Below, piece by piece: positions 2,638-54,600 of a stretch of 64,000 nucleotides of DNA (positions are counted from its first letter, which is position 1; each line of letters opens with the position of its first letter). The stretch is from an uncultured Bacteroidota bacterium (lineage in GTDB: Bacteria > Bacteroidota > Bacteroidia > Bacteroidales > WCHB1-69): NCBI GenBank assembly GCA_902802755.1, contig CADCNH010000004.1, positions 10,139-74,138 of the forward strand, given 5' to 3'. Below the pieces are notes generated by a model. The model made no database searches and was not told the origin of the DNA. It saw only the letters and a list, made by a program, of their open reading frames with translations. The translations under genes were made by a program, and so were the position numbers.

Positions 2638-2901
2638 GTAAAAGTTCTTTCTATCCTTGCGTGACATATTCAGTTCGGCCACATTGGCATATTGCTCGCA
2701 TTCGGCTATATTGAAAGGTGATTTTTCTTCCGATTAACATGATAAGAAATTTGAATTACAGATGCAAAAATAGAAAAAATGTCTTATAAATCCCCATAAC
2801 CTCCAAAAATAATATAGTTACGGGGATTTATACGGTAAAAATCACTTTATAAATGCCCGTAATTATCGATACAAAACTCCTTAATAGTTTGCCTCAAAGA
2901 G

Positions 2902-3106
2902 GCGTGCCAAAGGCACGATATTCTATTAACCCCGCACAACTTGTTGTGTGGGGTGGAAAATAACAAACCCTGTCTGCGTGCTGAAAGCACGCTATATATG
3001 CTTCAATGTGGCGTACCTACGGCACGCAGGAGTAGAGCAGTTTGCCGTATACCCCACATTGCGCTACGCTTATGCGGGGTTAATAGGATTACGTGCTTTC
3101 AGCACG
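2902..3106. repeat. Composite REP/MITE-like element with ~38 bp terminal inverted repeats and four CGTGC-N-GCACG-type hairpins
   Basis: Left gcgtgccaaaggcacgatattctattaaccccgcacaa versus right ttatgcggggttaataggattacgtgctttcagcacg; internal gcgtgctgaaagcacgc and gcgtacctacggcacgc. Confidence 0.75.
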
Positions 3107-3308
3107 GCTAATCGCTTATTGTATGCCACTTATAAAAAAACTTTTAGCACCAACCTAAAAAAAATAGCAACACTAGTAATGAAAAAAAAGTAGCACTAAC
3201 AACAAAAAACTTTTCTTTCAAAATAGAATTGATAATCTCAAAAACTTTGCGTAAATTTGCACCCCCTAAAATAGACAATCAATGTAAAATATAAAAAACA
3301 AAACTATC

Positions 3309-8053: not shown

Positions 8054-9202
8054 TTACTTCATTTCTTTTTTTAGGTAGTCGGATGGACTTTGACCGTATT
8101 TCTTCTTGAAAGAACGGAGGAATGTAGTGTATGAGTTGAAGCCCGAAAGGGTAGCGATCTCTTCTATTGAATAAGAATGGTTGCTATTGTTGATTTCCAA
8201 AAATTTTTTTGCTTTCTCCAAACGAAAATCGTTGATGTATTCGTAAAAAGTCTTGTGTTTCTCCTGGTTGATATAGTTGCTCAAATATTGACGGTTGGTG
8301 CCCAAATACCTTGCTAACTTTTGCAGTGTGAGATCAGACTCCATGTAATATTGCTTTTCACTTATTATATTCTCAATATTCATGTTCAGCAGGATTTCAT
8401 GATAGGGAGAAGTATAAGAAGCGTCCGTCAAAAGGTTTTCCTCAGTTGGATTTTGATTTTCTATCGCATTGTTCTCTTCGGGGTTGTTTTCTTCAGAAGT
8501 CAGGATAAAAACTTGCTGACGGATTATTTTTACCGTAAAAATTACCACAAAGATGAGAGAAAGGAAACAATAGCAAGTGTCAAAAAGGAGATTCTTGTCC
8601 GCTGAAGATACTGAAAACCAGGTTTGCTGCGAAAAACTCTCGAAGGCCCACAACAATTGGACCCCAAATAAAGTGACTATCAGGATAGAACCCCATCGCA
8701 GGTCGAAATATTCCATATTCCCCACATTGTTTTCCAACATTTTGGTGTATTTTTTGATGGAAATCAACAAGCAAACCAACAAAACAGAAGAGGCTACAAG
8801 GGTATAAATCTGAACGACAGAATAAACAATGGGGTTGTCCGAGAAAGTGAAAAACAGCGTGGCGATGATGAAAGGAATTTCCAAAAGCAAAAGCTGGCGG
8901 ATGTTGTAACGATTGGGAAAAACAAGGGAAACCGCAAACATCATGTATCCACCCACAGTCATATAGTCGTATAGAATTAGTAACGTATTGATATATTCGT
9001 AATTGGGAAGATTCTGGCAAGCCAACATCACAAAATTGTTGAAGAAGCCGAAGGAATGCATCACTAACACGGCGGCGAATATTCGTTGAAACAAGTATAT
9101 ACGATGATGACGAAACATGTATATGCTAAGGCAAAGCAATACTGCCTGGGTAAAACCAGAGGCAAGGCAAAGCAGTAATTCGTAAAAAAAGTCCGTGTTC
9201 AT
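8054..9202 (-). CDS. AraC-family regulator with multi-pass membrane N-terminus
   Basis: About 7 hydrophobic segments, then DLTLQKLA..LGTNRQYLS.YIN...FYEYINDFRLEKAK and IATLSGFNSYTTF.RSFKKKYGQSPSDY. Confidence 0.92.
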   Translation of the reverse strand: MNTDFFYELLLCLASGFTQAVLLCLSIYMFRHHRIYLFQRIFAAVLVMHSFGFFNNFVMLACQNLPNYEYINTLLILYDYMTVGGYMMFAVSLVFPNRYNIRQLLLLEIPFIIATLFFTFSDNPIVYSVVQIYTLVASSVLLVCLLISIKKYTKMLENNVGNMEYFDLRWGSILIVTLFGVQLLWAFESFSQQTWFSVSSADKNLLFDTCYCFLSLIFVVIFTVKIIRQQVFILTSEENNPEENNAIENQNPTEENLLTDASYTSPYHEILLNMNIENIISEKQYYMESDLTLQKLARYLGTNRQYLSNYINQEKHKTFYEYINDFRLEKAKKFLEINNSNHSYSIEEIATLSGFNSYTTFLRSFKKKYGQSPSDYLKKEMK

Positions 9203-9514: not shown

Positions 9515-12500
9515 ATGAAAAAATTTACCTTTTTGATGATTCTCATGCTTTTGGCGGTATGCGGTATGATGGCGCAGGCTCCGGAGAAATTCACCTACCA
9601 GGCAGTGGTGCGAAATGCCAATAATCAACTCATGACGAATACGTTGGTTGGCGTCAGGGTAAGTATTATGCAGGGAAGTTCCACTGGCAGTGTGGTCTAT
9701 TCGGAAACGCAAATGCTGAGCACCAACGCCAACGGTTTGATGACACTGAATATCGGTGATGGGAATATTGTTTATGGCAATTTCAGTACAATAAATTGGG
9801 GAAACGGCCCTTTTTTCCTCAAGTCGGAGATTGACGTTTCTGGCGGCAGTAATTACACGATATCCTCCACGCAGCAGTTGCTGAGTGTGCCGTATGCTTT
9901 GTATTCGAGCAAGGCGGGCAATGTTCCGGCTTTTACGGTGGTGCCTACCGACACAGGCTATGTCATCAGCATCAGCCAAGATGGTACAGCAACACAAACC
10001 TTTGTACTTCGACATGGTGCTCCTGGTCCGCAAGGTCCACAGGGTGAAACCGGTCCGCAGGGTCCACAAGGTCCGCAAGGAGACCCGGGAGCCACTGGTG
10101 CTCAGGGTCCACAGGGAGATCCAGGGGCTACTGGTGCCCAAGGACCACAAGGTGATCCGGGTATCCAAGGTCCGCAAGGTGATCCAGGTGCTACCGGTCC
10201 GCAGGGTCCACAAGGCCAGCAAGGTATTCAGGGTGAACCAGGACCTGCGGGTTTTTCTCCTCAAGTAACTACTATTTCCGCTGGCGATAGCACGGTGGTG
10301 GTGGTTACGGATGCGGAAGCTCAGCATCGTTTTGTGATTTATAACGGTGCCCAGGGTCCACAAGGTGAGCAGGGTATTCAAGGTCCGCAAGGTCCGCAGG
10401 GTGAGACGGGTGCTATCGGTCAGCAAGGTCCGCAGGGTCCTCAAGGTGAGCAGGGTATTCAAGGTCCACAAGGACCTCAGGGTGAGACGGGTGCTACCGG
10501 TCAGCAAGGTCCGCAGGGACCTCAAGGTGAGCAGGGTATTCAAGGTCCGCAAGGTCCGCAGGGTGAGACAGGTGCTACCGGTCAACAAGGTCCGCAGGGA
10601 CCTCAAGGCGAGCAAGGTCCTGCGGGTTTCTCTCCGATGGTGAGCACCATTTCCGCTGGCGACAGTACGGTGTTGGTCATCACAGATGCGGAAATACAGC
10701 ACCGTTTCGTTATCTATAATGGTGCCCAAGGGCCACAAGGTGAGCCCGGTGTAGGAATACCTCAAACACTCTCTCTTGAGGGAAACAACTTGTCGATTTC
10801 TGATGGCAATAGTGTTACCCTTCCGAGTATTCCGACTAATGTGAGCGCCTTTACCAATGATGCGGGCTACCTCACCAGCGACTCCATTCCCACCAATGTC
10901 AGTGCCTTTGCCAACGATGCCAGCTACCTCACCTCCTTCACTGAAACCCAAACTCTCGCCGATGTGACCGCCCAGGGCAACTCCGCCGGCAACCGCCAGC
11001 TGAAGGACGTAGCCGACCCGACCGAAAGCTACGATGCCGTGAACCTGCGCTCGCTTACCCTGATGATAGACTCGGCAAAAAACACCATGCAGCAAATGCA
11101 ACAACAGTGGCTGCAAGCACAGCAGCAATGGCAGGAAACCCAACAGCAGTGGCAGATACAACAGCAACAAATGCAACAACAATGGCAAATGCAGCAAACA
11201 CAACTGCAACAGCAGATTGACAGCTTGACACTGATTCTTAATTCGATAGCAGCCGACACCGCCTTCGCTCTTTGGAACACCTCTGTTGTGAACAAGACGG
11301 CCTGTAGCGCATACGAGTGGCACGGAGAGACCTATACCCAAAGCGGAATCTATCTTTACGGCTTCACCAACACGGACGGCTCCCACAACATAGAGGCCTT
11401 GAATCTGACCATTATTGCGGCCGACTCCATCCATATCCCAAAGGAGGCTTGTGACAGTTATACATGGAATGGCACAACCTACACAGAATCAGGAGACTAT
11501 TATTTAAGACTGACCAACCAATATGGCTGTGACAGTCTCCGGATCCTGCACCTGACTCTTCATCATGGAACACACAATGTGGAAATTGATACCGCTTGCG
11601 ACAGCTATACTTGGCATGGTGTCACCTACCATGAAAGCGGTGTTTATACCTACGCATACTCGAATGAATATGGCTGTGAGAGTGTAGATACCTTGAAGCT
11701 GACCATTTATTACACTCATAAGATGGAGACAGAGATGGCTTGCGAAAGCTATACTTGGCACAATACAACTTACACTACCAGTGGCACTTATACTTACGCC
11801 TATAACAACGAGTACGGTTGTGCCAGTGTGGATACGCTGAAGCTGACAGTCTATCCAGTCACCCACCATACGGAGACGGAGATTGCCTGCGAATCTTATA
11901 TCTGGCATGATTCCACTTACACTACCAGTGGCACCTACACATACACTTATAATGACGAAAATAGCTGCGAGACGGTGGATACCCTGAAACTGACAGTGCT
12001 ATATGGCTGTACTATTGATGAAAAGTCTTGTCCAGGTACACCAATTCTCGTGGATTTTGACAACAATGGTTATAGCACCGTACAGATTGGCAACCAGTGC
12101 TGGATGAGGAACAACCTTCGCACCACGCATTTTGCCGATGGTACATCCATACCTTTCAGCAGCGGGATGTCTGTAGCAGCTCCCTATTATTACGACTACA
12201 ACGACATTAACTATACTGAGTTTACCTTGGCAGAACGGGGAATGCTCTACAACTGGTCCGCCGCCATGCATAGCACATCCTCAGTGCCGTCTAATTCTGT
12301 TGGTGTGCAAGGTGTCTGCCCCACGGGCTGGCACGTACCTTCCGACGGGGAGTGGGCACAACTCATTAACTATGTGAACAGCCAGGAGCAGAACAGATGT
12401 GGTGGCATTGATGGACAGATAGCGAAAACCTTGGCATCCACCACAGGTTGGGATAGGGGCTATTCCGGCTATGAATGTCTCGTGGGCAACTACCAAAATA

Positions 12501-15500
12501 CAAATAACACTACCGGTTTCAGCATTGTTCCGGCAGGCAGCCTGACACGTGCAGGTAATTATGACGGTCAACGATATAACGCTCTTTTCTGGACTTCTAC
12601 AGAAAAAGAAGAAGATGCCTCACAGGCATATCGTTGGAGTATAGGTAACAACAGCTTGGGTATGAGTAGTGGTGCAGATTATAAGGATTGTGGTCTATCT
12701 GTCCGATGCCTGCGCAATGAAAACGGTGGAAGTGGCGGCGATACCCCGGCACAAATGTCTGCTGTGATTACCGATAATCCCACCAATGTCTCCCCAACCT
12801 CTGCCACCTTCAACGGAATTATTACCAATAGTGGCAATGCAGGGGTAACGGAGCGAGGTTTTGTGTATGGTGTGGGAACTGTCATAACCGATACGGTTCA
12901 AGTGACAGGGTTAGATTTTGTCTTTACAGCCGGGAACCTTACCCCTAACACGGAATACAGCGTAAAGGCTTATATTATAAACAGTTCGGGTACGAGTTAC
13001 GGCCGCATGGTGAACTTCACCACTGCGTGGGAACCTCAGCCGTGGGACGGTACAGGCCGCAATCCCAACGATGCGCGTCCTTGCAATGGCACGCCAACAG
13101 TAACCGACCACGAAGGCAACGTCTATAATACCGTGCAAATCGGCACACAGTGCTGGACCAAGGAGAATATGCGTTGCAAAACATCTCCAAGTACAGGTAC
13201 TCTAATTTTGGAAACATCCTATTCCGCTTTCTGTCCATATACTGCCAAGAAGGCTTATTATTTGTATGGTGATTCCACCCTGAATACAAGTGTCTATGGC
13301 CTGCTATATAATTGGAATGCGGTGGTGGATACATTCAACACTAATTATGGTGAGACCGATTGGCATCCTTGGTGGGAAAATTCCACTTTGGCAGTGTCTG
13401 TCACCTTCAATGGCCACCGCAGGGGCATTTGTCCCCAAGGCTGGCATGTGCCTTCCGACTCGGAGTGGACGCAGCTTGCTAACTATGTGAACAGCCAAGA
13501 ACAATACCGCTGCAATGGAACTGATGGTTCCATCGCGAGAGCATTGGCCGCGCCCACAGGTTGGAGCAGCAATAGTAGTAGTAGTAGCGGTAATGGTTGC
13601 TGGTTGGCCAACAGCCCTGCAAACAACCAAACGGGATTCACGGCTGTTAACACAGGAGGTATTTACAGCAATGGGGTAAAATTTTGGTCTTCTACCCAAG
13701 TGGACCGAGGCCATGCGTGGAGTTGTGTAATGCCTACCGGAAATAACTATCCAGTGCTGAATCTTGAGTGGATTTATGAGAATGATAGAAGATCTGTCCG
13801 CTGTCTGCGTGATACAGGAACGGTAAACGGTGGTGGAAGTGTTGACCCTCAGCCAAACTGTAGTTCTTACACTATCAGTATCAGCGGTAATACAGTCCTT
13901 TGCAGCGGCGAAAGCACCACCCTTACGGCTTCCGAGGCTATCAGTTACAGCTGGAGCAATGGAAGCAGCGATGCCAGCATTAATGTCAGCCCAACTGCCA
14001 CTACCACTTATTCTGTTACAGGCACCAACAGCCAAGGCTGTATGGCTAACGCATCTACAACTGTAACGGTCAACTACGCCACCAATAATACCATCACCGA
14101 GACCGCTTGCGAGTCCTACACATGGCATGGGCAAACCTATACCCAAAGCGGCACTTACACATACGCTTATACCAACGACAACGGTTGCTCCAGTACGGAC
14201 ACATTATTCTTGACCATTTATAATGGCACACACAATGTAGAGACTGAAACTGCTTGCAACTCTTACACTTGGCATGGAACCAACTATACGGAGAGTGGTA
14301 CCTACACATATAATTACACCAATGGTGACGGGTGTTCCAGTGTAGATACACTGTTCTTGACCATTAATAATGGCTCCCATAATGTGGAAACGGAAACTGC
14401 TTGCAACTCATATACTTGGCACGGGCAGACCTATACCCAAAGCGGTACTTACACATACAGTTACACCAACGAGTATGGCTGCCCTTGCACGGAAACGTTG
14501 AATTTGACCATTAATCACGGTTCGCACAATGTCTTTACCGAAACGGCAGAAGGCTCCTACATTTGGCATGAGCAGACATATACTGAAAGTGGCACTTATA
14601 CCTATGCTTACACCAACGAGCAGGATTGCGCCAGCGTGGACACTCTCCACTTGACGGTTTCCTCCGTTACTCCCATTATACCCACGGATACACTCGTGGA
14701 TGGTCAACCTTGCCCCGGTACCCCCACGGTGACCGACCACGAAGGCAATGTATATAACACGGTGCAGATTGGCAGCCAATGCTGGATGAAAGAGAATCTG
14801 CGCACTACCAGTTACAGCGACGGAACATCTCTCTCTTTGAGCAGTATTTCTTCTACGGATAACGGTTATAACTACTACTATCCTTATTATTACTACCCTT
14901 ATAATGATTCGTCCAATGTACGTACATACGGACTTCTTTACAATGGGAAAGCTGTGATGCGCGACTATACTTTCTCTTCTTCCAATCCGAGTGGTGTGCA
15001 GGGTATATGTCCTGTGGGGTGGCATGTCCCAAGTGATATGGAATGGACACAATTAATAGATTATGTCTCCTCGCAGGACCAGTACAAATGCAGTTCAAAG
15101 TCCAAATACATAGCCAAGGCATTGGCTGATTCAACGGGTTGGCCAGCTGGTAATACTACTCCTTGTGCTGTTTCCAATAATCCTTCCAATAACAATCTCA
15201 CGGGTTTTTCAGCTTTGCCTGCCGGTTATTATGGCGAAAACTCTTCCGTCCGTAAGGCATACTTTTGGAGCACTGCCGAGGAAATGGGAATTTGTCTTCT
15301 TCCTAATAATCCTGCTATCTATAATAGTAGTTATGGTTCTTCCGTTCGTTGCCTTCGTGATGATGTGGCAGGTGACAGTGGAGGGGAAGGATCGCAACTC
15401 CTTACTGTGACTACTTCTTCTGTGACCAATGTCACAACTATGTCTGCTATTTCAGGAGGCAACGTCACCAATAGCGGAAACGCATCTGTAATAATGCGTG

Positions 15501-18500
15501 GTGTGTGTTGGAGCACCTTACCATCTCCGACTATAGTGGACACACACTCCATAGATGGTGCAGGAACAGGGGTTTTTACGAGCAATATCACGGGCTTGGA
15601 AGAGGGAAGTACCTATTATTTGCGCGCCTATGCTATCAATAGTACGGATACTTCGTATGGTGCCGAAGTGAGATTCACTACTTTAGTATCAAATGTTGCT
15701 AATGATGGACAAACCTGTCCCGGTGATGCTACTGTGACTGACATCGACGGCAATGTTTATAATACAGTGCGGATTGGTAACCAATGTTGGATGAAAGAAA
15801 ATTTGCGTACTACCCATTACAGCGATGGAACATCCGCCAATTTCTACTATCCAAATAACGATTCTTCAAAAGTGAGTACATACGGATGTCTATACAGCTG
15901 GAATGTGGCAATGCATGGAGCGTCCTCCTCGCCAACTGTTCCGAGTGGTGTACAGGGCATCTGTCCCGTAGGGTGGCATGTACCAAGCAATGGAGAATGG
16001 TATCAACTGACTTATTATGTTTCCTCGCAGGAAGAGTACCTGTGTAGTCCTAATACCTCTTATATTGGCAAAGCATTAGCCAGTACGACGGGCTGGGCTA
16101 TCAGCAACACCAATTGTCATGTAGGCAAAAAACCTGCTGATAACAATGCCACGGGTTTTTCAGTGCTTCCTGCTGGCTATTACTATTATGGTGAACTTAA
16201 GAATTTTGGCAGTCAGGCTTACTTTTGGTCTTCTACCGAAAGTAATGCGGGTGCGGCCTATGAACGGCAAATTTTTTACAACGGCACTGGAATGGGCAAA
16301 GTTTCTTACAACAAAAGTTATGGTTACTCCGTCCGCTGTCTCCGCAATACATCCGTATCCGAAATTGGTGGTGGCGACACCCCATGCATCGGTACACACA
16401 ATGTGGAGACGGAAAATACTTGTGAATCATTTACTTGGCATGGACAGATTTATTCCCAAAGTGGCACTTACACGTATGCCTACAACAACTCCGAAGGGTG
16501 TGCAAGCGTGGATACACTAAAACTGACTATTTATCAGCCAGTGGCCACGACAAGTTCGGCCACTGCGTGCGAGTCCTACACTTGGGGCGACACCACCTAT
16601 ACCGAAAGCGGAGACTACACGCAGACCTTCTCCGCCGCCAACGGCTGCGACAGCGTGGTGACGTTGCATCTGACGATTAATCAGCCGGTGGCCACGACAA
16701 GCTCTGCCACTGCGTGTGAGTCCTACATTTGGAACGGACAGACCTACACCCTGAGTGGTGACTACACGCAGACCTTCACCGCTGCCAACGGCTGCGACAG
16801 CGTGGTGACCTTGCACCTGACCATCTATCAGCCAGTGAACACAACAAGCTCTGCCACCGCATGCGAGAGCTACACTTGGCATGAGCAAACTTATACCCAA
16901 AGTGGCGATTACACGTACAATTACACCAACGAACACGGCTGCCCTTGCACGGAAACGTTGCATCTGACCATTAATCACGGTTCGCACAACGTCTTTACCG
17001 AAACGGCAGAAGGCTCCTACACCTGGCACGAACAAACTTACACGGAAAGTGGCACTTATACCTATACCTACACCAACGCCAGTGGTTGTGCAAGTGTTGA
17101 TACCCTCCACCTGACCGTCACTTCAAATCCTCCCACACCTCCTACTCCTCCCTCAGACACCATCGCTGACGGCTACCCCTGTCCCAATGCGCACACAGTA
17201 ACCGACCACGAAGGCAATGTGTATAACACCGTGCAAATCGGCAACCAGTGTTGGACCAAGGAGAACATGCGCTGCACCACCTCTCCCAGCACAGGTACCA
17301 CCATTTTAGAGGTCTATCCCAATGGCACCTCTTACACAGGCAAGAAAGCCTACTATGTGAACGGAAATTCCTACAACACCCCCTCATACGGACTGCTGTA
17401 CAACTGGAACGCGGCGGTCGATACATTCAACACGGCATACGGGGAGACTTCCACCAACTCAAACTCCAGCAATGCGGTGTCCGTCGCGTTCACCAGCTAT
17501 CGCAGAGGCATCTGTCCGCAAGGCTGGCATGTGCCCTCCGATGCAGAATGGACACAGTTGATAAACTACGTTTCTTCGAAGAGCCGGTACCAATGCGGCT
17601 CCACCGGCGGCTCTATCGCTAAGGCATTGGCCGACACCACGGGCTGGAATATATATTCCATTCCATGCGCTATGGGCAACGACCTTTCCGCAAACAACGC
17701 CACGGGCTTTAGTGCGTTGCCCGCAGGTGCCTACTTCGGTAGTTTTTACTACTTCGGAGATGCCGCTGACTTTTGGAGTACCACTTCAATCTACAGCAAC
17801 TCCGCCTACTACAAATACCTCTACTATGACTACGCCGGCGTATACCAAGACCTCGGCAATATATACTGCGGAATTTCCGTCCGCTGCCTGATGGACTCCG
17901 CTATCGGTAGTGATACCTTATGCATCGGCACACACAATGTGGAAATGGAAAACGCCTGCGAAAATTACACCTGGCATGGGCAGACCTACACCCAAAGCGG
18001 AACATACACATACGCCTACACCAACGACGGCGGGTGCGCCAGCGTGGACACGCTTTTCTTGACCATTTACAATGGCACACACAACACTTACACCGAATCG
18101 GCAGAAGGCTCTTACATCTGGCATGAGCAGACGTACAGCGAGAGCGGTACCTACATATACACTTACAACAATGCGCAGGGTTGTGCCAGCGTGGATACAC
18201 TCCACCTGACCGTTACTTCCGTCATTCCCGATATTCCTGATGGACCGGCAGAAGACGGTCAGCCTTGTCCAGGTGTGAATGCGGTGACCGACCATGAAGG
18301 CAATATGTACAACACCGTGCAAATCGGCAACCAGTGCTGGACCAAGGAGAACATGCGCTGCACTACCTCGCCTACCACGGGAAGCAATTTGCTAACAGAA
18401 AACACTTCGGCGGCAAGCAAGTCGGCGAGTTGGCATTCCGACAACGGTTTGCATGATCCAGCCTACGGAGTACTCTACAATTGGTGTGCGGCTTTAGACA

Positions 18501-20659
18501 CCTTCTTCGCCGCAGGGGGCGCTCCCGAAGTTGCAAACGGGACATCAACCCAGAAGTTGAATTATTCATTCAGTGGCTATCGCAGGGGTATCTGCCCCAT
18601 AGGATGGCACGTGCCCGGAAAAACGGAATGGACACAACTGGCAGCGTATGTATATAGCAACGGCTACCGTTGCAGCGACTGTTCCTATCCGGAACTTGAT
18701 GAGTATAGTGCTTCTTGTATTGTCAAAGCATTGTCCTCCACCACTGGCTGGGAGACCGACGACTATGAGTGCGCGGTGGGCAACGATTTGTCTGCTAACA
18801 ACGCCACGGGTTTCAACGCTATGCCTGCTGGCCGTTATAGTGGCAACAACTATAGCGATTTTGGCGATTACGCTTACTTTTGGACCGCCACTGAGGATTA
18901 TGACCAATATAGTACCTGGGCATATTATCTCAATTGGTCTTATTATGAAACTGACTTTCATTTCCAAAACGAAACTCCAAAAGCCAATAAATTCTCTGTA
19001 CGCTGCGTGAAAGACGACACTTCTGGTGATGGTGGTAGCGACACGGGTTGTACCGGCACACATACTTCAGAGAATGTAAACACTTGCGAATCATACACTT
19101 GGCACGGATATACCTACACAGAAAGCGGCACTTACGTTTTCTTTTACACCAATGCGCAAGGCTGTTCTTGCTCGGAAACGCTTCACCTGACCATCTATGA
19201 AACAGTGCACTCGGTCAACTCAGCCGAAGCCTGCGAATCCTACACCTGGCACGGGCAGCCCTATCTTTCTTCTGGCACATATACATATAACTACGAAAAT
19301 GAATTTGGCTGCGCCAGCACGGAAACACTGAATCTAACCATTTATAATGGCACGCATACAAACTTTTCGGCCCAGGACTGCGAATCCTATACCTGGCATG
19401 GCACCACCTACAACGCAACTGGCTCATACACGTATAACTATACCGATGAGCATGGTTGTGCCTGCTCAGAAACCCTGAATTTGACCATCCAAGAGCATTT
19501 GAATTTGACAACCGCAGCCGGAGCTTGTGAAGAATACAATTGGCGCGGGCAAACACTTACGGCAAGCGGCTCCTATACTGCTGATTATATCAACGATCAT
19601 GGGTGCTCTTGCACGGAAACGCTGAACCTGACCATCTATAATGGTACGCACAACAACTATGCGGAAACAGCTTGTCCAAATTATAATTGGCATGGTGTAG
19701 TTTATGACCAAAGCGGAGTATACACATATTCCTATACCGATGAACATGGCTGCGCAAGTGAGGATGTACTCCACCTGACCATTTCCTCCGATTGTGAATA
19801 TAGCAATCCTTGTCCTGGCACACCTACTGTGACCGACCATGAAGGCAATGTGTATAATACGGTGCAAATCGGTAGCCAATGCTGGACAAAGGAGAACATG
19901 CGCTGCACCACCTCGCCGAGCACGGGCAGCAACCTTATACCCGATTGGATATATTCCTCTGGCTGCTTCGATTCAGAATTCAGCAAGTGTGCGATGTATT
20001 CCGATCGTTTTTCGCAAGATTCTGCATACGGAGTGCTCTACAATTGGTGTGCGGCCATGGATGTTTATAATACGTCTTATCCCGAAATTCATGATGGATC
20101 CTGTGGGGGTAGTGATTCAACAGAAGAATGGATATACACTATCACCAGTCAACACAGAGGCATTTGTCCACAAGGATGGCATGTGCCTTCCACCGATGAA
20201 TTCCATCAATTAACAACTTATCTCTATGATAGCGTCGGATATCAGTGTGGCAATGACTGTTATGCCTTCATTATGGGAAACACAGTCAACTGCATTGCCA
20301 AGGCGTTGGCAGATACAACGGGATGGAACATTGACGATAACACATCAGGGACACCTGTCTGGATGGGAGGAACCTGTTCTGTTGGCTACGACCTATCCTC
20401 CAACAACGCCACAGGATTCAGTGCGTTGCCCGCCGGATTTGCAGGAGGAGGTCACGGCGATCAAATAGACGATTACCATTGGATTTTCTACCCCTACGTT
20501 TACCGTTCCGGTGAAAGAGCCTGCTTCTACTCTTCCACTTCTACTCCCTCTTCCGGCCAGTACTACTTTCAAATAGACTATGATACAGCCGCAGTGAAAC
20601 ATCAAGATGATATTATTGGAATCAAAGGACATTCCGTCCGCTGTGTGAAGGATGAATAA
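9515..20659 (+). CDS. Giant secreted fibre-like protein 1 (3714 aa): SVPYAL N-domain, collagen repeats, Q-rich coiled coil, 21 Cys-containing ~49-aa repeats, FN3/Ig-like domains and 7 Fib_succ_major (FISUMP) domains
   Basis: Sec signal peptide; GXY runs; seven copies of D..GN.Y.TV.IG.QCW...N.R ... G.CP.GWHVP ... SVRC; ACESYTWHG...GC.SVDTL.LTI repeats. Confidence 0.9.
10016..10756 (+). repeat. Collagen-like Gly-X-Y tract with two beta-rich interruptions
   Basis: (GPQ/GEQ/GET/GAT)n with 63-bp repeated units; interruptions [28 protein letters not shown]. Confidence 0.9.
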
Positions 20660-44243: not shown

Positions 44244-44367
44244 CTCAAATTTTTTTGCAAAAATACACAAATTTCCCAAAATACATACAAATTGTGCTGA
44301 AGTCAAGAAAAAAGGGAGTACCTTCCGGCACCCCCTTGAATAATATCACATTGTAATGACTGATTTA

Positions 44368-47300
44368 TCAATCTTTAACGCAGCGCAGTGAATTACCGTG
44401 GCTTTGAGCTGAATTTCCAATCGTATAACTAGTAGAATTATCTATATACAAAATCGTTGGAGTACCATTTGACCCAATGCCCCATAGTATAGTGTACTCT
44501 CCAAAACCTTGGTATATAGCTGCGTTTCCTGAAGGATACAATCTTCCGGCATATTTGGCTGCAAACCCAGTGGCAGATGTCAGGCTTGCTCCTGAATTCC
44601 TCAAAGCAGAAAAATCTGAATCAGTAGGAATATGCCAGCCTGTCGGGCAAATGCCCTTCATACCTTGAGTGGGAGTGGAAGCGCTGTTTGTGATAGCCTT
44701 CCAGTTATACAAATATCCGTATGTGCTCAAATTGGAGGAATTTCCTTTTGGATAATAACGATAAGCTGTTGTGGAGGATGGAGCAATAGTAGAATCCTTT
44801 AAAGTGCCTACAGGATAGCGCAAGTTCTCCGTCATCCAGCACTGGCTGCCGAATACCTTAATAGAATAGCTATTACCATTATTGTCCGATACCGTGGTGG
44901 CACGGCCGCAAGGACCTGCATCCTCCAACACGAATTTCAAAGCAAAACCAGCTTTAGTTACGGATACATCGCTCGTGAAATGAATGGTAAGGGCACCATC
45001 AGAAGATGTGGAGGTGTAAGCCGTTACTGTACCACCATTGGTACCAGTATACTGGGCCACACTACTTGCTGAGGCTGAAGTGTTTGTACCATTAAATACT
45101 TGTAAGACATCGTAGTCGGTTTCTATAGCATACGTGCCGGAAGCCAATTTCACTCTCTTGTTGATGGAAGAGGGCTTGACAATCAGATAACCATCCCAAT
45201 TGTTGCCATAATTGCCATTAGGGCCGCCAGCATCATAAACCCAGACGGAGTCGGAAGATAGTGTAAGTGTTCTATCTCCAGTGGTAGGCACTGTCTGGAC
45301 AACCGTAAAGTTGAGGTTGTTACTATAGGCTGTACCATTTATAGTGGTGGCAAAGGCGCGTACTGTGTAAGTGTAATTCATAGAGACGGAGAAGGTGAGG
45401 TCAAATGTGTTGGCACTGGTGTCCTTGGTAATGTAGGTGTTGTTGAGCGTTGGTGTGTTGGTGCCAGATACAAAGCAAATACCCTTGACTAACAGGTGCT
45501 CACCTTGGCCATTGACCGTCACTCTTACGGTTGCTTTGTTGTAGTTCATGGAAACAAGACTAACAGTAGCCGTAGGCAATGAACCCTGCTGATTGTTAAT
45601 CTGCTGCTGTAAGCTGTCTATAGTCTCCTGCATCTGGTAAATTGTACCCTCGGCCATGTCACGCACGCAGCGTACGGAATATCCGTTTCCAACATGATAA
45701 CTACTACTTGCATTTCTCAGCACATAATCATTGCACCATCTGAAAACATATACCACTGGAAGGGAAGAGCTTAGTGTTGAAGTCCAGAAATAGGTTTCCT
45801 CACCAGGTAAATAATTATAAAAGGGAGAATGGAAACCGGCCGGTCCAGCGTCGAAACCGGTAGCGTTGTTAGCAGATAAATTATAACCAGGGGTACAACT
45901 ATTGCTTGTGAAGGATCTCCAGTTGGATTGCGAAGCCAAAGCTTTGGCTACATAGAATCTTTCACTGTTATTGCTATTGTTATAACCGCTGCATAAGTAT
46001 AGACTGTTACTGCTCACGGAATTTAACATTTGTGACCATTCAGCATCACTCGGCACGTGCCAGTTGTCGGGACAAATACCTTGTACACCGCTGGGATTGT
46101 TATTGCTGCTTGATGCATCGTGCATCACAGCGGCTTTGTTGTATAAGTAGCCATAAATAGACAAATTGGCTTCGTTATTACCTGGATAGTAGCGGTATCC
46201 ATAAGTTTCAGAAGAATCGCTCATCTCTCCTAACCAAATATGGGCTCCATCAGCATAAGTGGTAGTGCGAAGGTTCTCCTTCATCCAGCACTGGTTACCG
46301 ATCTTCACGGTGTTGTAGCTGTTGCCGTCAATATCATACATCTTGGAGCTGCCACACAGGAACAAGGGATCGTCATTGTTCTGATCTTGCTGCTGCATCT
46401 CGTTGATTTGCTGCTGCATCTCGTTGATCTGTTGCTGCTGTTGGTTGATGGTCTGATTCTGATTGTCAATCGTCTGTTGCAACTGGCCTATGGTACCTTC
46501 AGCCACATCGCGCACGCAACGTACAGGATACAATAAAGCCTTATTCTCAATATTGTTGATATCGTCGATGTCAGCATCGTAAGCACTAAGCTTCAATGTA
46601 TAGGCACCAGAAACCGAAGCACTCGATTGATCATTACCATAGTTGTACGACAAGGTAGAACTCCAGAAGTTTGTTCTTTGTTTAGGAGACAGTTGTGCAT
46701 AAGTGAAAGAAGATGTGATTTGTGCATAACCGAATCCAATAGCGGAGAAACCGGAAGCATTGTTGTCAGAGAGATTATTACCAACAGCACATGTAATACT
46801 GTTGGTGTTCCAACTACCGGGAAGGTTGGAAGCCAGAGCCTTGGCAATGTCTCCTGTGTTGGTGCCACAATACATTTGGTTATTGACCAAGGTGTTTTTC
46901 AAGGTATTCCAATCAGTCCAATAATCAGGAATATGCCACCCGTCGGGACAGATACCTTGGTTTACAACACTACCCGCTTCATTCTGATTCCAGTTACCTA
47001 CAGGACTTTGCTCGGAAGCTGTGGACAGGCCATACAAAGCGGCAGCCAAGTTATACACACCACTCTGGAATTCATTGCCTGAATCGGTATATGACATAAG
47101 ATGATAGAGCGGTGTTGTTCCACTTGTATCGTGTGATAATATAGCACTACTTAAATTACTGATGGCGGTACCGTCAGGGAAGTGTGTGGTACGGAGGTTT
47201 TCCTTCATCCAGCACTGGTTGCCGATTTTCACGGTATTGTATGCGTTGCCGTCCACGTCGTATACTTTGGAGGTGCCGCAGGTGAAGGTGATATCGTTGT

Positions 47301-50300
47301 TACCCGTGCCGGCATTGGCCTGTGTATTGGCCAGCTCGTTCTCCAGACTGTCGATACGGTTGTTGAGTGTGCCCATGCTATTGTTAATCATTGCCTGAAC
47401 ATCGGCAGCGGTAAGGAATCCGCTCAAGTCGGGCGTCGTGAGATTGATAGTCTGGTTGTCGCAGGCGTTAGCAGAGAAGGTACCCACCGGCTCGTTGTTC
47501 TGCATAATGGTGAGCACACCGTCGCACACAGTAGGACTTTGGTTTTCACCTTCGTCGCCGTTGTCGGCAGTCTCAGCAATGTCGCGCACGCAACGGACAG
47601 ACATACCCCAAGTGTTGAAACTATAACTGATTCCAAAATTTGGATTAGCATAATTAATGATAACAGTCCATATACGACCTGCAATTTCCGGATATAAAGT
47701 TGTGCTGCTGAAGTATGCGTTTGTATTATGGATTGACGAAGTTCCTCCATTATTGAATCCTGCCGGCAATGCAGAAAATCCAGTAGCATTATTTTCAGAA
47801 ACATTATATCCAACATTACAATTATCTGCATAAGAGGTAGGAATGTTGGTATTCCATGCTGTGGCAGCGGCCAATGCTTTAGCAGTATAATTGGGTTCGC
47901 CGCAACCGTATTCGCTGACACTGTGTACATAGTCTTTCAAGAGTGTCCACTCGCCGTGACTGGGGACGTGCCATCCTACAGGACAAATACCCTGAACACC
48001 GCTGGGAACCGCATCACTACTGGATTCATTGTTCATCGCGGCTATCCAATTATAGAGATAGCCGTATGTGGCAACAGAATCTACACCTTGTTCTGGGTTG
48101 AAACGACAACGTTGGGTTGACGTAATTGACATGTTTCCGTATGGAATATCCGTTCCGTCGCTGTAATGTGTAGATCGGATATTCTCCTTCATCCAGCATT
48201 GGGTACCAATCTTGACAGTGTTGTATGTATTACCGTCATAGTCTTTCACCTTGGAAGTACCGCAGGTGAAGGTGGCATCTTGGATATCATTCATCGTATT
48301 TTGCATATCAGCTATCACATTTTGCAAGCTGTCGATTTGATTTTGCATGCCAGTGATGTCAGGAACAACAGGGCTCACAATGTTGACTGTTCGATTTTCA
48401 CTTTGGTTAGCGGTGAAGGTACCTACAGTCTGGCCATCCTGCTGGATGGTGAGTGTGGCGTTGTTCACTGTCGGGAGATCTTCAGATGTAATATATCCCG
48501 CGTCGTTTTGGAATTCACTTACGTTGGAAGGTACTGTCGGAAGATCTTGAGATGTAATATATCCCGCATCGTTTTGGAATTCACTCACGTTGGAGGGTAC
48601 TGTCGGAATGGTGGGTGCTCCGTTCAAATCGCTGTAATTGCCCGTAAAGGCCACGGTGGCCAGGCTGTCGTGCAGGTTAAGACTTGTCTCTTCATCCTGC
48701 GGGTCACGGAGGCAACGAATGGAATAGCCGTTGGCAGCACAATTTTCTGTGTGACGGACATTGTTTATATAATATGAATGATGCTCTTTAAACACCACTG
48801 GTTGAGCTGGTAACATTGTTATGGAGCAGTAACCCTTGGTATATTGATTGTCATCATATGTGGCACTCCAGAAACCAACAGAATAAGACTCAAAGATACC
48901 ACCGTTCCAAAAATAATTACCTGCGGGGAAAGCTGAGAAACCCGTGGCATTGTTGGTGGAAAGATCATGAGCCACCGCACAAGGAGAATAACTGGTAGAT
49001 GTATATTGCCAACCAGTGTTCGATGCTAAAGCCTTGGCCACGTATGTGGCATCACCATCACAAGCGTACTGGCTTTGACTTCCCACATAGTCAAGAAGCT
49101 GAATCCATTCTGCTTCGCTCGGCACGTGCCAGCCCGTAGGACAGATACCTTGTACCCCACTTGGGATAGCATTGCTGTATACAGCCCCATTCATAACCGC
49201 AGGCCAGTTGTATAGGTATCCACGCTCTGTCAATGACAAGTTGCAATCAGTGTTATCATAGTAATGGGGATTCGTGGTACTGGTATCTGTGCCAGCGGAT
49301 ATTTCCGTACCATCTGCATGGTGTGTGGTTCTTAGGTTCTCTTTGGTCCAGCACTGAGTGCCAATCTTGACGGTGTTATATGTATTGCCGTCATAGTCTT
49401 TCACTTTGGAAACACCGCAGATAAAGTTGACGCCATTCATTTCATCCATGTAATCTTGCATTTCATTCAGCAAATTCTGCAGACTATCGATTTGGTTTTG
49501 GAGAGAGCCCAACTGATCCTCAGTATTCTGCATCTGGTCGCTAATGCATCGTATGGAAAGACCTCGTTCTTGATTTTCATAACTTATGACGGCTTTAGTC
49601 CAAGCATAGTAAAACTCAAAAGTATAAGCTCTGTTCAAATTAGCGCCGACAGTTTTCCAACTGGAAGAACTCCAGAAATATGCATAAGCACCAAAACTAC
49701 TATAATAATTGTGATTAAAATAGCCAGTAGGCAGAGCTGTGAATCCAGTTGCATTGTTGGAACTTTGATCATTACCTACATTGCATTCTTGCGAATAGTT
49801 GGTCCATCCTGTATTCGAAGCCAAAGCTTTTGCTATATTTTCATTGGAAGAGCCACATATATATTCATTTTGATTGCTTACATAGTTAATAAGAACATTA
49901 AATTCTGCCTTACTGGGCAAATGCCAACCTGTGGGACAAATACCTTGCACTCCACTTGGGTCTGCAACACTGGGAGTAGCATTGTTCATGGCTGCCATCC
50001 AGTTATAAAGATAACCGTGTGTAGCCACATTTTCAACCTTATTACGAGGATAATAGCGATAAGCAGTGGTAGTTGATGTGTCAGTGCCAAGAGCAATTTC
50101 CGTTCCGTTGCTATAGTGAGTGGTACGCAGGTTTTCTTTCATCCAGCATTGGTCTCCAAGTCTAAGTGTATTATATACATTTCCGTCATAGTCGGTTACC
50201 GTTGCAGGGCATACACCCTGATTATTATTATCCGACGTTCCCTGTTGATTTGTACCAGATGCTTCATCCCGGACACAACGAACGGAAAGACCATTTGTTT

Positions 50301-53300
50301 TTTTATTATATGTCATTTGCGGTTCAAAAGAATTTGCATATAATTGGAAACTACTTGCATTAGCAACATTTTCTCTTTCCGTCGCACCCCATATATATGC
50401 ATATCCACCTGTTTGACCTATTGTTTTTGTACCTGCTGCTCTGGCTGAAAAACCTGTAGCGTTATTGGTGGACATATTATTTCCCACTACACATTCATTA
50501 TTTACGTTCCACCATCCTACGGTGTCTGCCAAGGCTTTGCCGTATGCTGTACCATAGTTGTTGCATAAATATTCGTTTTGGCTGCTTACATAATCAATAA
50601 GTTGGTTCCATTCTGACTCACTTGGTACGTGCCATCCCGTGGGACAAATACCTTGTACTCCACTAGGATTCGCACTGCTGGAAGAGTTACCCCTCATGGT
50701 TGCCGCCCAGTTATATAAACGACCGTAAAGAGAAGCATTACCAAGAACATAATGATAAGCTACAGTGGAAGAGGTATCGTTGTTTCCTGCAGCGATTTCA
50801 GTACCATCGCTATAGTGTGTGGTTTTCAAGTTCTCCTTGGTCCAACATTGGTTACCAATCTTCACCGTATTATAAACGTTACCATCGTAGTCCTTTATGG
50901 TGGAAGTACCACATACAAAACCAACAGCATCTATTTGGTTTTGCATATTGGCCATCACCTCCTGCAAACTGTCAATCTGGTGCTGCAGGCCCGTGATGTC
51001 GGGAACAACAGGGCTCACGATGTTGACCGTCTGGTCCTCACCCTGGTTAGCAGTGAAGGTGCCTACAGTTTGGCCATCCTGTTGGATGGTGAGTGTGGCA
51101 TTGTTCACTGCCGGGAGATCTTGGGATGTAATATATCCTGCATCATTCTGGAATGCACTCACGTTGGAAGGTACAGTTGGGATGGTGGGCTGGTTAATCA
51201 AGTCGTTGTAGTCGCCAGAAGTGGCAACGGGTTTGAGATCCGGTTTGTTAAGAATCATCTGTGTGCCGCTGGTGGCATTCCAGTCGGCAGGTAATTGCGT
51301 GATTTCACCGCTGGTGGTCGGGATGGTATAGGTATGTGTACCCGTTCCATCAGTCACGTGAATAAGGACATTGGAGCCGTTGCCTTCGGCCGTTACAGTC
51401 GGAGATACACCATCCTGTCCGTTTTCTCCGTTGGTGATGGTAAATGTGGATGTGGTTCCATCGGTATAAGTAATAGTGTATGTATCTACGGAACCCGCTG
51501 TGCTGGTCTTAGCAACAGAAGAGATGCCATTTCCGACAGGACCTTGGGGACCTTGCTCACCTTGGAGACCTTGCGGACCAGTTTCACCTTGAGGACCTTG
51601 TGGACCGACAGGACCTTGCACACCTTGTATACCTTGTTCGCCCTGAGGACCTTGTGGACCTTGCGGACCTGTCTCACCTTGTAAACCTTGCAAACCTTGT
51701 TCACCTTGAGGACCAGCGGGACCTTGTTCACCTGCGGCACCATTGGTTACCGTGAACATGCTGGTGGTGCCATCAGTATAATATATTGTATACACGTCTT
51801 GTAAACCACTGGTCACTGGACCTGTGATTTCTTGAATGCCGCGACCATCATTGCCGCCACCGGTACCGCCAGAAGGCAATGTTACGGTGTTACCACCAGA
51901 AATGGTCAACTGGTTACCAGAAATGGTCAACGTCTGGTTTGTGCCCTGACCATCCACACCGTTGGTTACCGTGAAAGTGCTGGTGGTGTTATCTGTATAA
52001 TTGATGGTATAGGTATCCACATTGCCATTGGAACTTGTCTGGGTGATGGAGACAATGCCCTTGCCAGCAGGACCTTGCAAACCCTGTTCACCCTGTGGAC
52101 CTTGCGGACCAGTCTCACCTTGCAGACCTTGTTCACCCTGTGGACCTTGCGGACCAGTCTCGCCTTGCAAACCCTGTTCTCCTTGGGGACCTACAGGACC
52201 TTGCTGGCCGTTGTGCACTATGAAAGTATGAGGGCCATACTTGTCGGTGATAGTCACTACTGTGCTGTCACCAGCTGTGATGGCTTCCACTACGGGTGAA
52301 TAGCCATCCACACCGTTGGTACCATTTGCACCGTCAGCGCCTTTCAAGGAGTTGAGGAAGTCGGTCACTGTGCCGGTATTGCCAGCCGCCAACCATAAGT
52401 CGTAAGCGGAGGCACCATCCTGACCATCTTCTCCATTAGTACCGTTGGTGCCATTTGCACCGTCAGCGCCTTTCAAAGAGTTGAGGAAGTCGGTCACTGT
52501 GCCGGTATTGCCAGCCGCCAACCACAAGTCGTAAGCGGAAGCACCATCAGCACCATCTTCTCCATTAGTACCGTTAGTACCATTTGCACCGTCAGTGCCT
52601 TTCAAAGAGTTGAGGAAGTCGGTCACTGTGCCGATATTGCCAGCCGCCAACCACAAGTCGTAAGCGGAAGCGCCATCAGCACCATCTTCTCCATTAGTAC
52701 CGTTGGTACCATTTGCACCGTCAGCACCTTTCAAAGAGTTGAGGAAGTCGGTCACTGTGCCAGTATTGCCAGCCGCCAACCACAAGTCGTAAGCGGAAGC
52801 GCCATCAGCACCATCTTCACCATTAGTACCGTTGGTACCATTTGCGCCGTCAGCACCTTTCAAAGAGTTGAGGAAGTCGGTCACTGTGCCGGTATTGCCG
52901 GCAGCCAACCACAAGTCGTAAGCGGAAGCGCCATCAGCACCATCTTCTCCATTAGTACCGTTGGTACCATTGGCACCGTCAGCGCCTTTCAAAGAGTTGA
53001 GGAAGTCGGTCACTGTGCCGGTATTGCCAGCCGCCAACCATAAGTCGTAAGCGGAGGCACCATCCTGACCATTTTCTCCATTAGTACCATTTGTGCCATT
53101 TGCACCGTCAGCGCCTTTCAAAGAGTTGAGGAAGTCGGCCACTGTGCCAGTATTGCCCGCAGCCAACCATAAGTCGTAAGCGGAAGCGCCATCCTGACCA
53201 TCGCTACCATCTTGTCCGTTTGTTCCGTTGGCACCATTCTGAATGGTGAAGGAGTGCGGACCGGTTGCATCGGTAATGGTCACTTGTGTTCCACCTTCTA

Positions 53301-53895
53301 CAGATGTTGTAGTCACAACAGGAGAGAAGCCGTCAGCACCATCCTGACCATCTTGTCCGGGAGCACCCGGAGGGCCTTGCGGTCCAGGAGAGCCTTGACG
53401 GAGGAAGAAAGTTTGCGGGGTACCACCAGGCTGAGTGATGGTAACCACATAACCACTGTCGGTCGGGATAATGGCAAAGGCGGGAATATTGCCAGCATGG
53501 CTTGCATACAAAGCATACGGTACACTCAGCAGCTGCTGAATACCCGCAATACTGTAGTTAAAACCACCTTCCGGGTCAATTTCGGATTTCAGGAAGAAGG
53601 GACCATTGCCCCAGTTAATACTGGAGAAGTTGCCTGACACAGGAGTACCGTTACCAACCTCCACAGTCATCAAACCATTGGCGTTGGTTTGTGTAGTATG
53701 GGTCTCCATATACACGGGGGTTCCACTTTCATTTCCTTGCAAAATGGTTATCTGCACGGAAACATTCTGATTGATGACCAAACTGTTGTTCGTATTACGA
53801 ACCACTGCCTGATAACTCATCTTTTGGGGTGACTGGGCCAGCAATGCGGCCATTGAAATCACCATTGCAAACAAAAAGAGTATAAGTTTTCTCAT
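44368..53895 (-). CDS. Giant secreted fibre-like protein 2 (~3175 aa): SVPYAL N-domain, collagen and 43-aa SAYDLW repeats, phage-fibre-like motifs, coiled coils, 7 FISUMP domains, FN3-like and CUB-like domains
   Basis: Signal peptide from ATG 53895; paralogous to 9515-20659 at the N-terminus; seven QCW..EN...G.CP..WH.P...RC domains; [13 protein letters not shown]...ETDYD.L...IHFTSD....AGF is CUB-like. Confidence 0.9.
52312..53215 (-). repeat. Seven near-identical 129-bp (43-aa) tandem repeats
   Basis: [43 protein letters not shown] x7; cgtaagcgga recurs at 52401 and 52530 (129 bp period). Confidence 0.95.
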
Positions 53896-53984
53896 GGCAA
53901 ATGTTTTTGAAAATAAATTTTGTTTCACGTTTTGTTTTACAGATGCACAAGGGCTTACCCTAACAACTATTGATTGTTAGTCGT

Positions 53985-54473
53985 TTACAGACTGTTTTTC
54001 ACCACCTTGAAGGTTTTGAGCAGTGTTTTGTTGTCCACAATACGCAAATGATAGGTGGCTGCCGCATAGTCGGAAAAATCTATTTCGGTATCCAAATCTT
54101 TCACAATAAATGATTTAACCAACTTTCCATTAAAATCGTAAAGCTGGGCTGTTAAGCCGTAGGATGGAATATCGTATTTCCTGATGCTTAACAGAACCTT
54201 GCTGGTGGTGGGGTTAGGATAAAGTATGGCTTCCAGGGTTATGTTGGGATAACTGTTGATGCCCACCTCCTGGATTTCGAAGGGCTGTTGAACACCTTCA
54301 ATGATGTATTGGCCACTGCCTTCCACTTTCTGATCTGCTATCTGGCCTACGGTGTAGGTTACTGTACCGCCGCTACCTGTTGCACTACCGCCTGTGGTTA
54401 CCACAGCGGATTGTCCGAACGCTGATAACGACAAAAAACTAATGGTAAAAAATGTAAATAAAAATTTCTTCAT
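53985..54473 (-). CDS. Small T9SS type A sorting-domain protein
   Basis: Signal peptide, short N-domain (GGSATGSGGTVTYTVGQ...EGVQQP), then LYPNPT...LYDFNGKLV...IDFSDYAAATYHLRI...KTFKVVK. Confidence 0.88.
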   Translation of the reverse strand: MKKFLFTFFTISFLSLSAFGQSAVVTTGGSATGSGGTVTYTVGQIADQKVEGSGQYIIEGVQQPFEIQEVGINSYPNITLEAILYPNPTTSKVLLSIRKYDIPSYGLTAQLYDFNGKLVKSFIVKDLDTEIDFSDYAAATYHLRIVDNKTLLKTFKVVKNSL

Positions 54474-54600
54474 ATCAATAAGGGTTTAATTAAACTTTTT
54501 TCTTACAAAATACTATAAATTCCATGCAAATATAGAATTTTTTTTAAATGAAACATCAATTGTTGATAACTTTTTTTAAGAAATCTTGTTTTTTTGCAAA

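Follow-up and report, generated by a model that had tools for sequence, protein, structure and literature searches.

A small T9SS sorting-domain gene conserved in front of MAT-like fibre genes in Bacteroidota

The locus described here raises the question of what a very small protein with a sorting signal could do for a giant fibre that has none. It lies in a stretch of 64,000 nucleotides (the window) from an uncultured Bacteroidales bacterium of the WCHB1-69 lineage (assembly GCA_902802755.1, contig CADCNH010000004.1, positions 10,139 to 74,138). On the minus strand of the window, a gene for a 162-aa protein ending in a type A C-terminal domain (CTD) of a type IX secretion system (T9SS) is followed by a gene for a 3175-aa fibre with collagen-like runs and FISUMP domains (Table 1). 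T9SS cargo is recognised by its own CTD. An earlier interpretation made from the letters alone (the sequence-only reading) had proposed that the small protein attaches to the fibre's N-terminal domain (N-domain) and exports or anchors the fibre. The pairing of the two genes is conserved in the phylum Bacteroidota, and of the two products it is the small protein that appears to be accessory to the fibres.

Conservation of the pairing

From a collection in which each species has one genome, the 80 best loci of the small gene were taken; 55 assemblies contributed, most of them metagenome-assembled genomes of rumen and gut Bacteroidales. In 69 of the 80 loci and 51 of the 55 assemblies, a gene with the fibre N-domain starts 19 to 739 bp downstream on the same strand, mostly at less than 250 bp. 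Two loci end no more than 95 bp past the small gene, leaving 69 paired loci among 78 usable ones. Other N-domain starts number 10 in 1.12 Mb, which corresponds to about 0.5 neighbours expected by chance in 78 loci. The pairing is far above chance, and a chance neighbourhood was rejected on this ground. The fibres encoded downstream vary in length between 426 and more than 3300 aa, with a FISUMP C-terminus in almost every case. The upstream flanks are not conserved; any open reading frame (ORF) within 3 kb is common to 64 of 1634 locus pairs from different assemblies.

The nine unpaired usable loci consist of one with an insertion-sequence-like fragment and then a FISUMP gene, one with a fibre whose N-domain is deleted, and seven with unrelated downstream genes. 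Decayed pairs can be seen at L068:10619-11020, where the fibre is reduced to a signal peptide and a FISUMP end (134 aa), and at L036:10774-12078, where the insertion-sequence-like fragment separates the small gene from a short FISUMP gene.

The pairing extends beyond these loci. The order was sampled evenly with 401 genomes; in 27 of the 30 N-domain loci that score best there, the conserved N-terminal part of the small protein (N-part) adjoins the N-domain gene. A further even sample, of 200 other genomes of the phylum, has the N-part in seven genomes, four of them belonging to other orders and three to other classes, and all 10 matches outside the order have an N-domain gene directly downstream. 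Complete genomes from other orders are among those with the pair (G520 and G477). Gene order and strand are fixed across classes, and the pairing is retained at small-protein identities down to ~42%. A metagenome set of 79 loci was picked solely by FISUMP likeness, the scan query being P0156, a protein in which the N-part is fused to FISUMP without a CTD. All seven small N-part matches in this set are directly followed by an N-domain gene, although two of them look like one sequence sampled twice. The scan returned mostly FISUMP matches and none with the P0156 architecture. The adjacency across Bacteroidota, which the sequence-only reading had offered as a check of its proposal, is thus confirmed in all four collections.

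The dependence is one-way. In the sample of the order, the N-domain is present in 254 of 401 genomes and the N-part, by profile search, in 151. Both occur together in 147 genomes, so that 147 of the 151 genomes with the small gene have fibres; neither occurs in 143. Only four genomes have the small gene alone, and at least two of these cases are at contig ends or in cut frames. The small protein, a minimal CTD protein, seems to exist only for fibres.

The two products and their locus

The small protein has the composition that had been read from its sequence, namely a putative signal sequence, an N-part of ~45 residues and a type A CTD. The CTD matches PF18962 (Por_Secre_tail) with 34.4 bits against a cut-off of 27 (residues 84-150) and TIGR04183 with 34.6 bits against a cut-off of 23 (residues 84-160), which places the protein among the CTD cargo. 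An invariant residue, Gln21 in this protein, follows directly behind the hydrophobic N-terminus in the family alignment. The 464 matches to the small protein are nearly all 161-162 aa long and, where named, are called just "T9SS type A sorting domain-containing protein". A split gene, in which the CTD was torn from the fibre, was rejected on the upstream position of the small gene, its own signal sequence and its steady length of ~155-200 aa throughout the phylum.

The N-part diverges less than the CTD, the mean p-distance being 0.46 against 0.60 in 97 pairs. In the AlphaFold2 model of the small protein, the CTD has a pLDDT of ~90 and the N-part one of ~46-51. Such a poor solo model of a conserved piece fits folding upon contact with a partner. 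The mature part showed no recognisable fold of an enzyme or binding protein in Pfam and NCBIfam profiles, the AlphaFold2 model or an Atlas look-up; the last returned for the N-part only Bacteroidota clusters without names (best score 0.89).

At E <= 0.001, the N-part profile matches 3338 representative clusters, of which 334 reach E <= 1e-10. Among the 150 best representatives, 145 are at most 209 aa long and five exceed 250 aa, one of the five being an unrelated repeat protein. The N-part heads other architectures in P0154, P0156, P0159 and P0212. These longer forms include a 2690-aa protein with an N-terminal N-part and a tail that is CTD-like by eye but has no Pfam hit, two proteins with tandem N-parts (one of 306 aa that also has a CTD, the other of 534 aa), and P0156, whose 301 aa join the N-part straight to a FISUMP domain. 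Three genuine longer CTD-ending forms also have the N-part at their N-terminus. Judged from these architectures, the N-part is a small portable module, usually on a CTD protein and in front of a fibre wherever this could be checked. A variant pair is seen in L135 (G340, a genome of the order). Its first gene (995-2368) encodes a 457-aa protein with an N-part, a dockerin-like stretch and a weak CTD match below the cut-off; its second (2444-4213), 75 bp on, encodes a 589-aa fibre. The tip of this fibre has several CxxCH motifs and weak matches, below cut-off, to multihaem cytochrome families, and it may be a redox-active head.

The open frame of the fibre gene of the window reaches a GTG at 53928. 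The longer start is not supported by the relatives, which all start with MKK or MRK at the place of ATG 53895, and this ATG was therefore taken as the start. The fibre matches PF01391 (collagen) with 83.6 bits, PF09603 with 669.6 bits over seven stretches and TIGR02145 with 588.2 bits, and is a FISUMP protein. Five coiled-coil-like linkers of the "IDSL" type are present. Collagen GXY runs imply trimers, and the fibre, with its GXY runs and coiled-coil-like linkers, is expected to be trimeric. Seven near-identical 43-aa repeats (residues 221-517; 52408-53235, minus strand) each start with a short GXY run, and the rest of the repeat presumably resembles a motif common in collagen-like phage tail fibre proteins. 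The C-terminal end of the fibre is a FISUMP domain. Several papers, in their accessible parts, count FISUMP domains among the targets of diversity-generating retroelements, which fits a ligand-binding head. The sequence-only reading had described a giant that ends in FISUMP and lacks a CTD, a lipobox and a barrel. This description holds: Pfam and NCBIfam profile searches found no Por_Secre_tail or other CTD in the fibre, the absence of Cys from its signal sequence leaves no lipobox, and no barrel is present.

The N-domain of the fibre (residues 21-135 region) is modelled as a beta-sandwich with a pLDDT of 79, and a fold search with this model gave no match in the PDB at E <= 0.001. All 40 N-domains searched match NF053851 (Bdello_MAT_N), the profile for the N-domain of the mosaic adhesive trimer (MAT) fibres of Bdellovibrio, below its curated cut-off, with a best E-value of 3.3e-12. 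The fibre of the window scores 27.6 bits as a whole and 41.5 bits with the N-domain alone against a cut-off of 60, over profile positions 3-78 of 162. Judged from these matches, the N-domain is homologous to the MAT N-domain but not a member of the curated Bdellovibrio subfamily. As in MAT fibres, the tips vary among paired relatives; they are FISUMP, Peptidase_S74 (L128 and L133, both paired fibres from other classes), multihaem-like (L135) or without Pfam hit.

Table 1. Features of the gene pair, its surroundings and the paralogous fibre in the window.
Feature	Positions	Strand	Residues	Description
Candidate Bacteroidetes -7 promoter motif	54527-54534	-		TATATTTG; 54 bp before the ATG of the small gene
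Small gene	53985-54473	-		ORF of 162 aa plus stop
Small protein, putative signal peptide	54414-54473	-	1-20	Hydrophobic N-terminus
Small protein, conserved N-part	54282-54413	-	21 to ~64	Gly-rich, ~45 aa; followed by a linker
Small protein, type A T9SS CTD	53988-54224	-	84-162	PF18962 and TIGR04183
Spacer	53896-53984	-		89 bp between small gene and fibre gene
Fibre gene	44368-53895	-		3175 aa plus stop; start ATG 53895
Fibre, signal peptide	53836-53895	-		Without Cys
Fibre, N-domain	53491-53835	-	21-135	~115 aa
Fibre, collagen region	51526-53394	-		Short GXY runs alternating with seven 43-aa repeats, then two long collagen runs
Fibre, FISUMP region	44371-50925	-		Seven FISUMP domains with coiled-coil-like linkers; weak CUB-like stretch before the last FISUMP
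Terminator-like hairpin	44312-44337	-		11 pairs, 6 of them G-C, then a T run; 31 bp past the fibre stop
Paralogous fibre	9515-20659	+		3714 aa; N-domain 57% identical to that of the 3175-aa fibre; no small partner upstream

The motif before the small gene, TATATTTG, fits what we take to be the Bacteroidetes -7 consensus, TAnnTTTG; the sigma-70 promoter scan does not cover this promoter type. A terminator scan found no terminator-like site on the minus strand between the two genes. Spacing, motif and lack of a terminator are all as the sequence-only reading had them, and the two-gene unit is probably one operon. DNA contigs of two other studies span the junction without difference (X2 at 53579-54258 and X4 at 53505-54019), which means only that the pair exists elsewhere. 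The pair is flanked in the window by cell-division and housekeeping genes (FtsZ/FtsA, a LytTR regulator, IMPDH and a SPOR protein).

Just one small gene, but four N-domain genes (encoding 3175, 3714, 415 and 515 aa), are present in the genome of the window. The 3714-aa fibre has long collagen runs, FISUMP domains and many Cys repeats of ~40 aa (C.SYTWHG.TYT.SGTYTY type), and a gene for an AraC-type regulator (8054-9202) lies upstream of it on the opposite strand. Directly upstream of the 515-aa fibre (contig C9) is a gene for a 424-aa secreted FISUMP protein without an N-domain (L014:1969-3243). The N-terminus of this protein was considered as a second N-part and rejected, as the N-part profile found one copy in the genome. 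FISUMP genes seem to cluster with fibres even without the small gene, likewise in L148, L155, L140 and L175.

Possible roles of the small protein

The genome of the window encodes the translocon and the sortase of the T9SS. SprA matches TIGR04189 (E = 0), PorU matches NF033707 with 1234.8 bits against a cut-off of 420, and PorV matches NF033710 with 441.6 bits against a cut-off of 250. PorU and PorV are adjacent on the minus strand (G000:C12:26327-30922); contig C28 begins with a further, incomplete PorU/PorV pair, perhaps a duplicate, perhaps the result of a split in the assembly. In the sample of the order, SprA is present in 384 of 401 genomes, and the N-domain occurs in 252 of the 384 SprA-positive genomes and in two of the 17 SprA-negative ones. 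This hints that the fibres go with the T9SS, although the 17 SprA-negative genomes represent few families. The two SprA-negative genomes with the N-domain may be assembly gaps: one (G271) is 82% complete, and genus-mates of the other (G312) have SprA. The presence of SprA was tried as a discriminator of the readings below and fails, as nearly all genomes of the sample have it.

A contact between the two products was modelled with residues 21-140 of the fibre, containing the N-domain, and residues 21-84 of the small protein, one copy each, using 30-row alignments in matching order. Three runs gave an ipSAE of 0.44, 0.47 and 0.47, whereas the highest of three controls gave 0.00; at least 69% of the contacts are common to the runs, and the pLDDT of the partner is at least 46. 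In the calibration of the tool, the mark was reached by 58 of 80 solved complexes and two of 110 mismatched pairs, but at scores of 0.60 or less it was reached by seven of the 80 solved complexes and both of the mismatches. The description of the tool warns that, where the guess was not already likely, a pass like this one is wrong more often than it is right. Here, a contact between N-domain and N-part was likely beforehand because the adjacency is conserved. The prediction thus lends weak support to a 1:1 complex, and the interface foreseen by the sequence-only reading is upheld to this extent, with a partner pLDDT of just 46.

The reading preferred here, tentatively and at slightly less than an even chance, is that the T9SS delivers the small protein to the surface, where it serves as a dock for the base of the fibre. 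The T9SS would carry the small protein across the outer membrane, and PorU would remove the CTD and fix the N-part to the cell surface. The fibre N-domain would bind the surface N-part, and the fibre would be tethered by its base with the FISUMP heads outward. This reading draws on the conserved adjacency, the joint occurrence in genomes, the well-kept but poorly modelled N-part, the weak complex prediction, the T9SS genes of the genome and the kinship of the N-domain with that of MAT fibres.

Several observations weigh against such a dock. Set against the calibration of the tool, the complex score ranks as weak and amounts to no confident model of binding. In the sample of the order, 107 of the 254 fibre-bearing genomes are without the small gene (the N-domain is thus present in 107 of the 250 genomes that lack the N-part), and at least 898 N-domain matches stand against 244 N-part matches. 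One of the four fibres in the genome of the window is paired, and the N-part profile finds a single copy genome-wide. In the metagenome set, seven of 25 full N-domain genes are preceded by the small gene. No other small CTD gene was seen upstream of 11 unpaired fibres; the inspected ones have another fibre or an unrelated gene upstream. The pairing claimed by the sequence-only reading is therefore conserved but not obligatory for the fibre family, with 107 of 254 fibre genomes, three of four fibres in the genome of the window and 18 of 25 metagenome fibres unpaired. The P0156 fusion, having no CTD, means that T9SS sorting does not go with the N-part in every case. Co-evolution was rejected as evidence of contact: in partial Mantel tests over the 97 pairs, the correlation with the N-domain was 0.38 for the N-part given the CTD and 0.32 for the CTD given the N-part. 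Both halves of the small protein track the N-domain about equally, which indicates inheritance as a unit and says nothing of contact. Contigs of an RNA library (X20) lie at 53692-53873 and 53973-54101, and none bridges the spacer; they differ from the window by 6 of 182 and 7 of 129 bases, and contigs cannot show a transcript; an RNA library may also contain DNA. To our knowledge, Bdellovibrio has no T9SS, yet its MAT fibres reach the surface.

If the small protein has a role for fibres, this role probably extends beyond the adjacent one. At L081:10001-16100 and L048:10001-14700, a single small gene precedes a series of two or three same-strand fibre genes, the first fibre of L048 being frameshifted.

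The small protein might instead act before the outer membrane. It could clamp the N-domain in the periplasm, so that the entire fibre passes SprA by means of a CTD working in trans and is then anchored by PorU; the small protein would then be a detachable sorting signal. All of the pairing evidence applies to this possibility, as does the best ipSAE of 0.47. It would also explain how the fibre crosses the outer membrane: the fibre has a Sec signal peptide but neither CTD nor lipobox nor barrel, and so needs some route. The distribution of the N-domain over SprA-positive and SprA-negative genomes agrees with it, although this association is weak given the few families behind the 17 negative genomes. 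That the T9SS handles folded and very large proteins is stated in the accessible part of PMC9251779. However, the fibres are commoner than the small gene, and the many fibres without it must have another route, or carriers that were not found here. MAT fibres reach the surface in Bdellovibrio, which is not known to have a T9SS, a trimer of megadalton size with 21 FISUMP heads would have to fit the translocon, and a full-text literature search found no T9SS cargo carried on the CTD of a partner. We consider this export in trans unlikely, though not negligible. A helper of assembly is less probable still: the small protein would cap or chaperone the N-domain in the periplasm and later be removed via the T9SS. 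It could keep three chains in register before the collagen zipper closes, or block premature sticking. The small gene is upstream in the same unit and its product would hence be made first, the N-part is disordered when modelled alone, and the fold search with the N-domain lists pilus chaperone-subunit complexes, albeit only as weak Ig-like matches (TM ~0.3-0.4). Yet most fibres of the N-domain family fold without the small protein, a CTD is odd for a periplasmic helper, and no likeness to a known chaperone family was found with Pfam and NCBIfam profiles.

The two proteins may also be linked without binding each other. The small protein would then be a co-expressed surface peptide or a released factor in the process that the fibre serves, for example one that alters the surface round the fibre base or competes for the same ligand, and the pair would be kept for co-regulation. 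Conserved operons need not encode binding partners, and seven of 44 blindly picked neighbours passed the complex test; the score of the pair itself is weak. The N-part at the head of large T9SS proteins and its fusion to FISUMP suggest a function of its own. Against this stand the strongly one-way dependence (147 of 151 genomes), the order and strand fixed across classes, and a tiny mature part that has no recognisable enzymatic or binding fold; such co-regulation has a rather low probability in our estimate. Very improbable is a synteny that was merely inherited and has no functional meaning. Many loci do come from related gut and rumen Bacteroidales genomes, and kin are not independent. However, the pair is kept while its flanks change (64 of 1634 locus pairs with a common upstream ORF), and it is kept in 10 of 10 cases across orders and classes at identities down to ~42%, with 69 neighbours observed against 0.5 expected.

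Comparison with known systems

CTD cargo, collagen, FISUMP and a MAT-like fibre are all parts of known kinds. What appears to be new is the conserved pairing of the two genes and the connection that it makes between the T9SS and a MAT-type N-domain. The sequence-only reading knew of no functional description of the pairing, and the full-text search, which does not cover the whole literature, likewise found neither the pairing nor any cargo carried by the CTD of a partner. Long adhesive fibres without a CTD are widespread in gut and rumen Bacteroidales and other Bacteroidota, and many are preceded by the minimal CTD protein. With lectin-like FISUMP heads in series, these fibres are probably important where cells attach to plant fibre, to host glycans or to other rumen microbes. 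If the small protein binds the N-domain, the two would form a modular mount for exchangeable surface adhesins, made of a simple pair of ~45 and 115 residues. If the CTD acts in trans, the prediction of T9SS secretomes would change, as proteins without a CTD would count as possible cargo, and the fibre would be the first T9SS cargo carried on the CTD of a partner.

A close likeness is to the MAT fibres of Bdellovibrio bacteriovorus as described in the accessible part of Caulton et al. 2024 (PMC10769870). In both, a signal peptide is followed at once by a conserved beta-rich N-domain of ~115-130 aa, then by a long shaft that should trimerise and by swappable C-terminal tips. Peptidase_S74 ends occur among relatives of the fibre and in 13 of those MATs, and neither N-domain has a solved structural relative. 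In contrast to the Bdellovibrio fibres, the one of the window belongs to a Bacteroidales bacterium with a T9SS, its shaft consists of collagen GXY runs and coiled-coil-like linkers, and its heads are serial FISUMP domains and not one tip. A small CTD gene precedes the fibre here, of which the same part of PMC10769870 makes no mention. The surface partner of the MAT N-domain is an open point in that text. The N-part would be a concrete candidate for it if binding is real, and export in trans would likewise name the kind of surface partner awaited for this N-domain.

A model for a small partner that lends its sorting signal in trans is Tat hitch-hiker export, in which a signal-less subunit is carried by a signal-bearing partner (PMC9251779, accessible part). 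The Tat case concerns another machine and another membrane, and the literature search returned no T9SS counterpart.

SprB of Flavobacterium johnsoniae is an adhesin with a type B CTD, and the neighbouring gene sprF encodes its cognate PorP-like protein. As in the locus of the window, a giant surface adhesin stands beside a small dedicated gene related to the T9SS. SprB, however, has its own CTD, and SprF is an outer-membrane barrel encoded downstream, whereas here the giant is without a CTD and the helper is CTD cargo encoded upstream.

The gingipains of Porphyromonas gingivalis are type A CTD cargo, which PorU cleaves and links to anionic lipopolysaccharide. The small protein shares with such cargo a C-terminal TIGR04183/PF18962 domain above the cut-offs, in a genome with SprA, PorU and PorV, and it starts with a putative Sec signal peptide. 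In contrast to gingipain-type cargo, its passenger has only ~45-60 residues and no enzyme or adhesin domain. The conservation of this passenger and the fixed neighbour suggest that the real payload of the small protein is a second protein.

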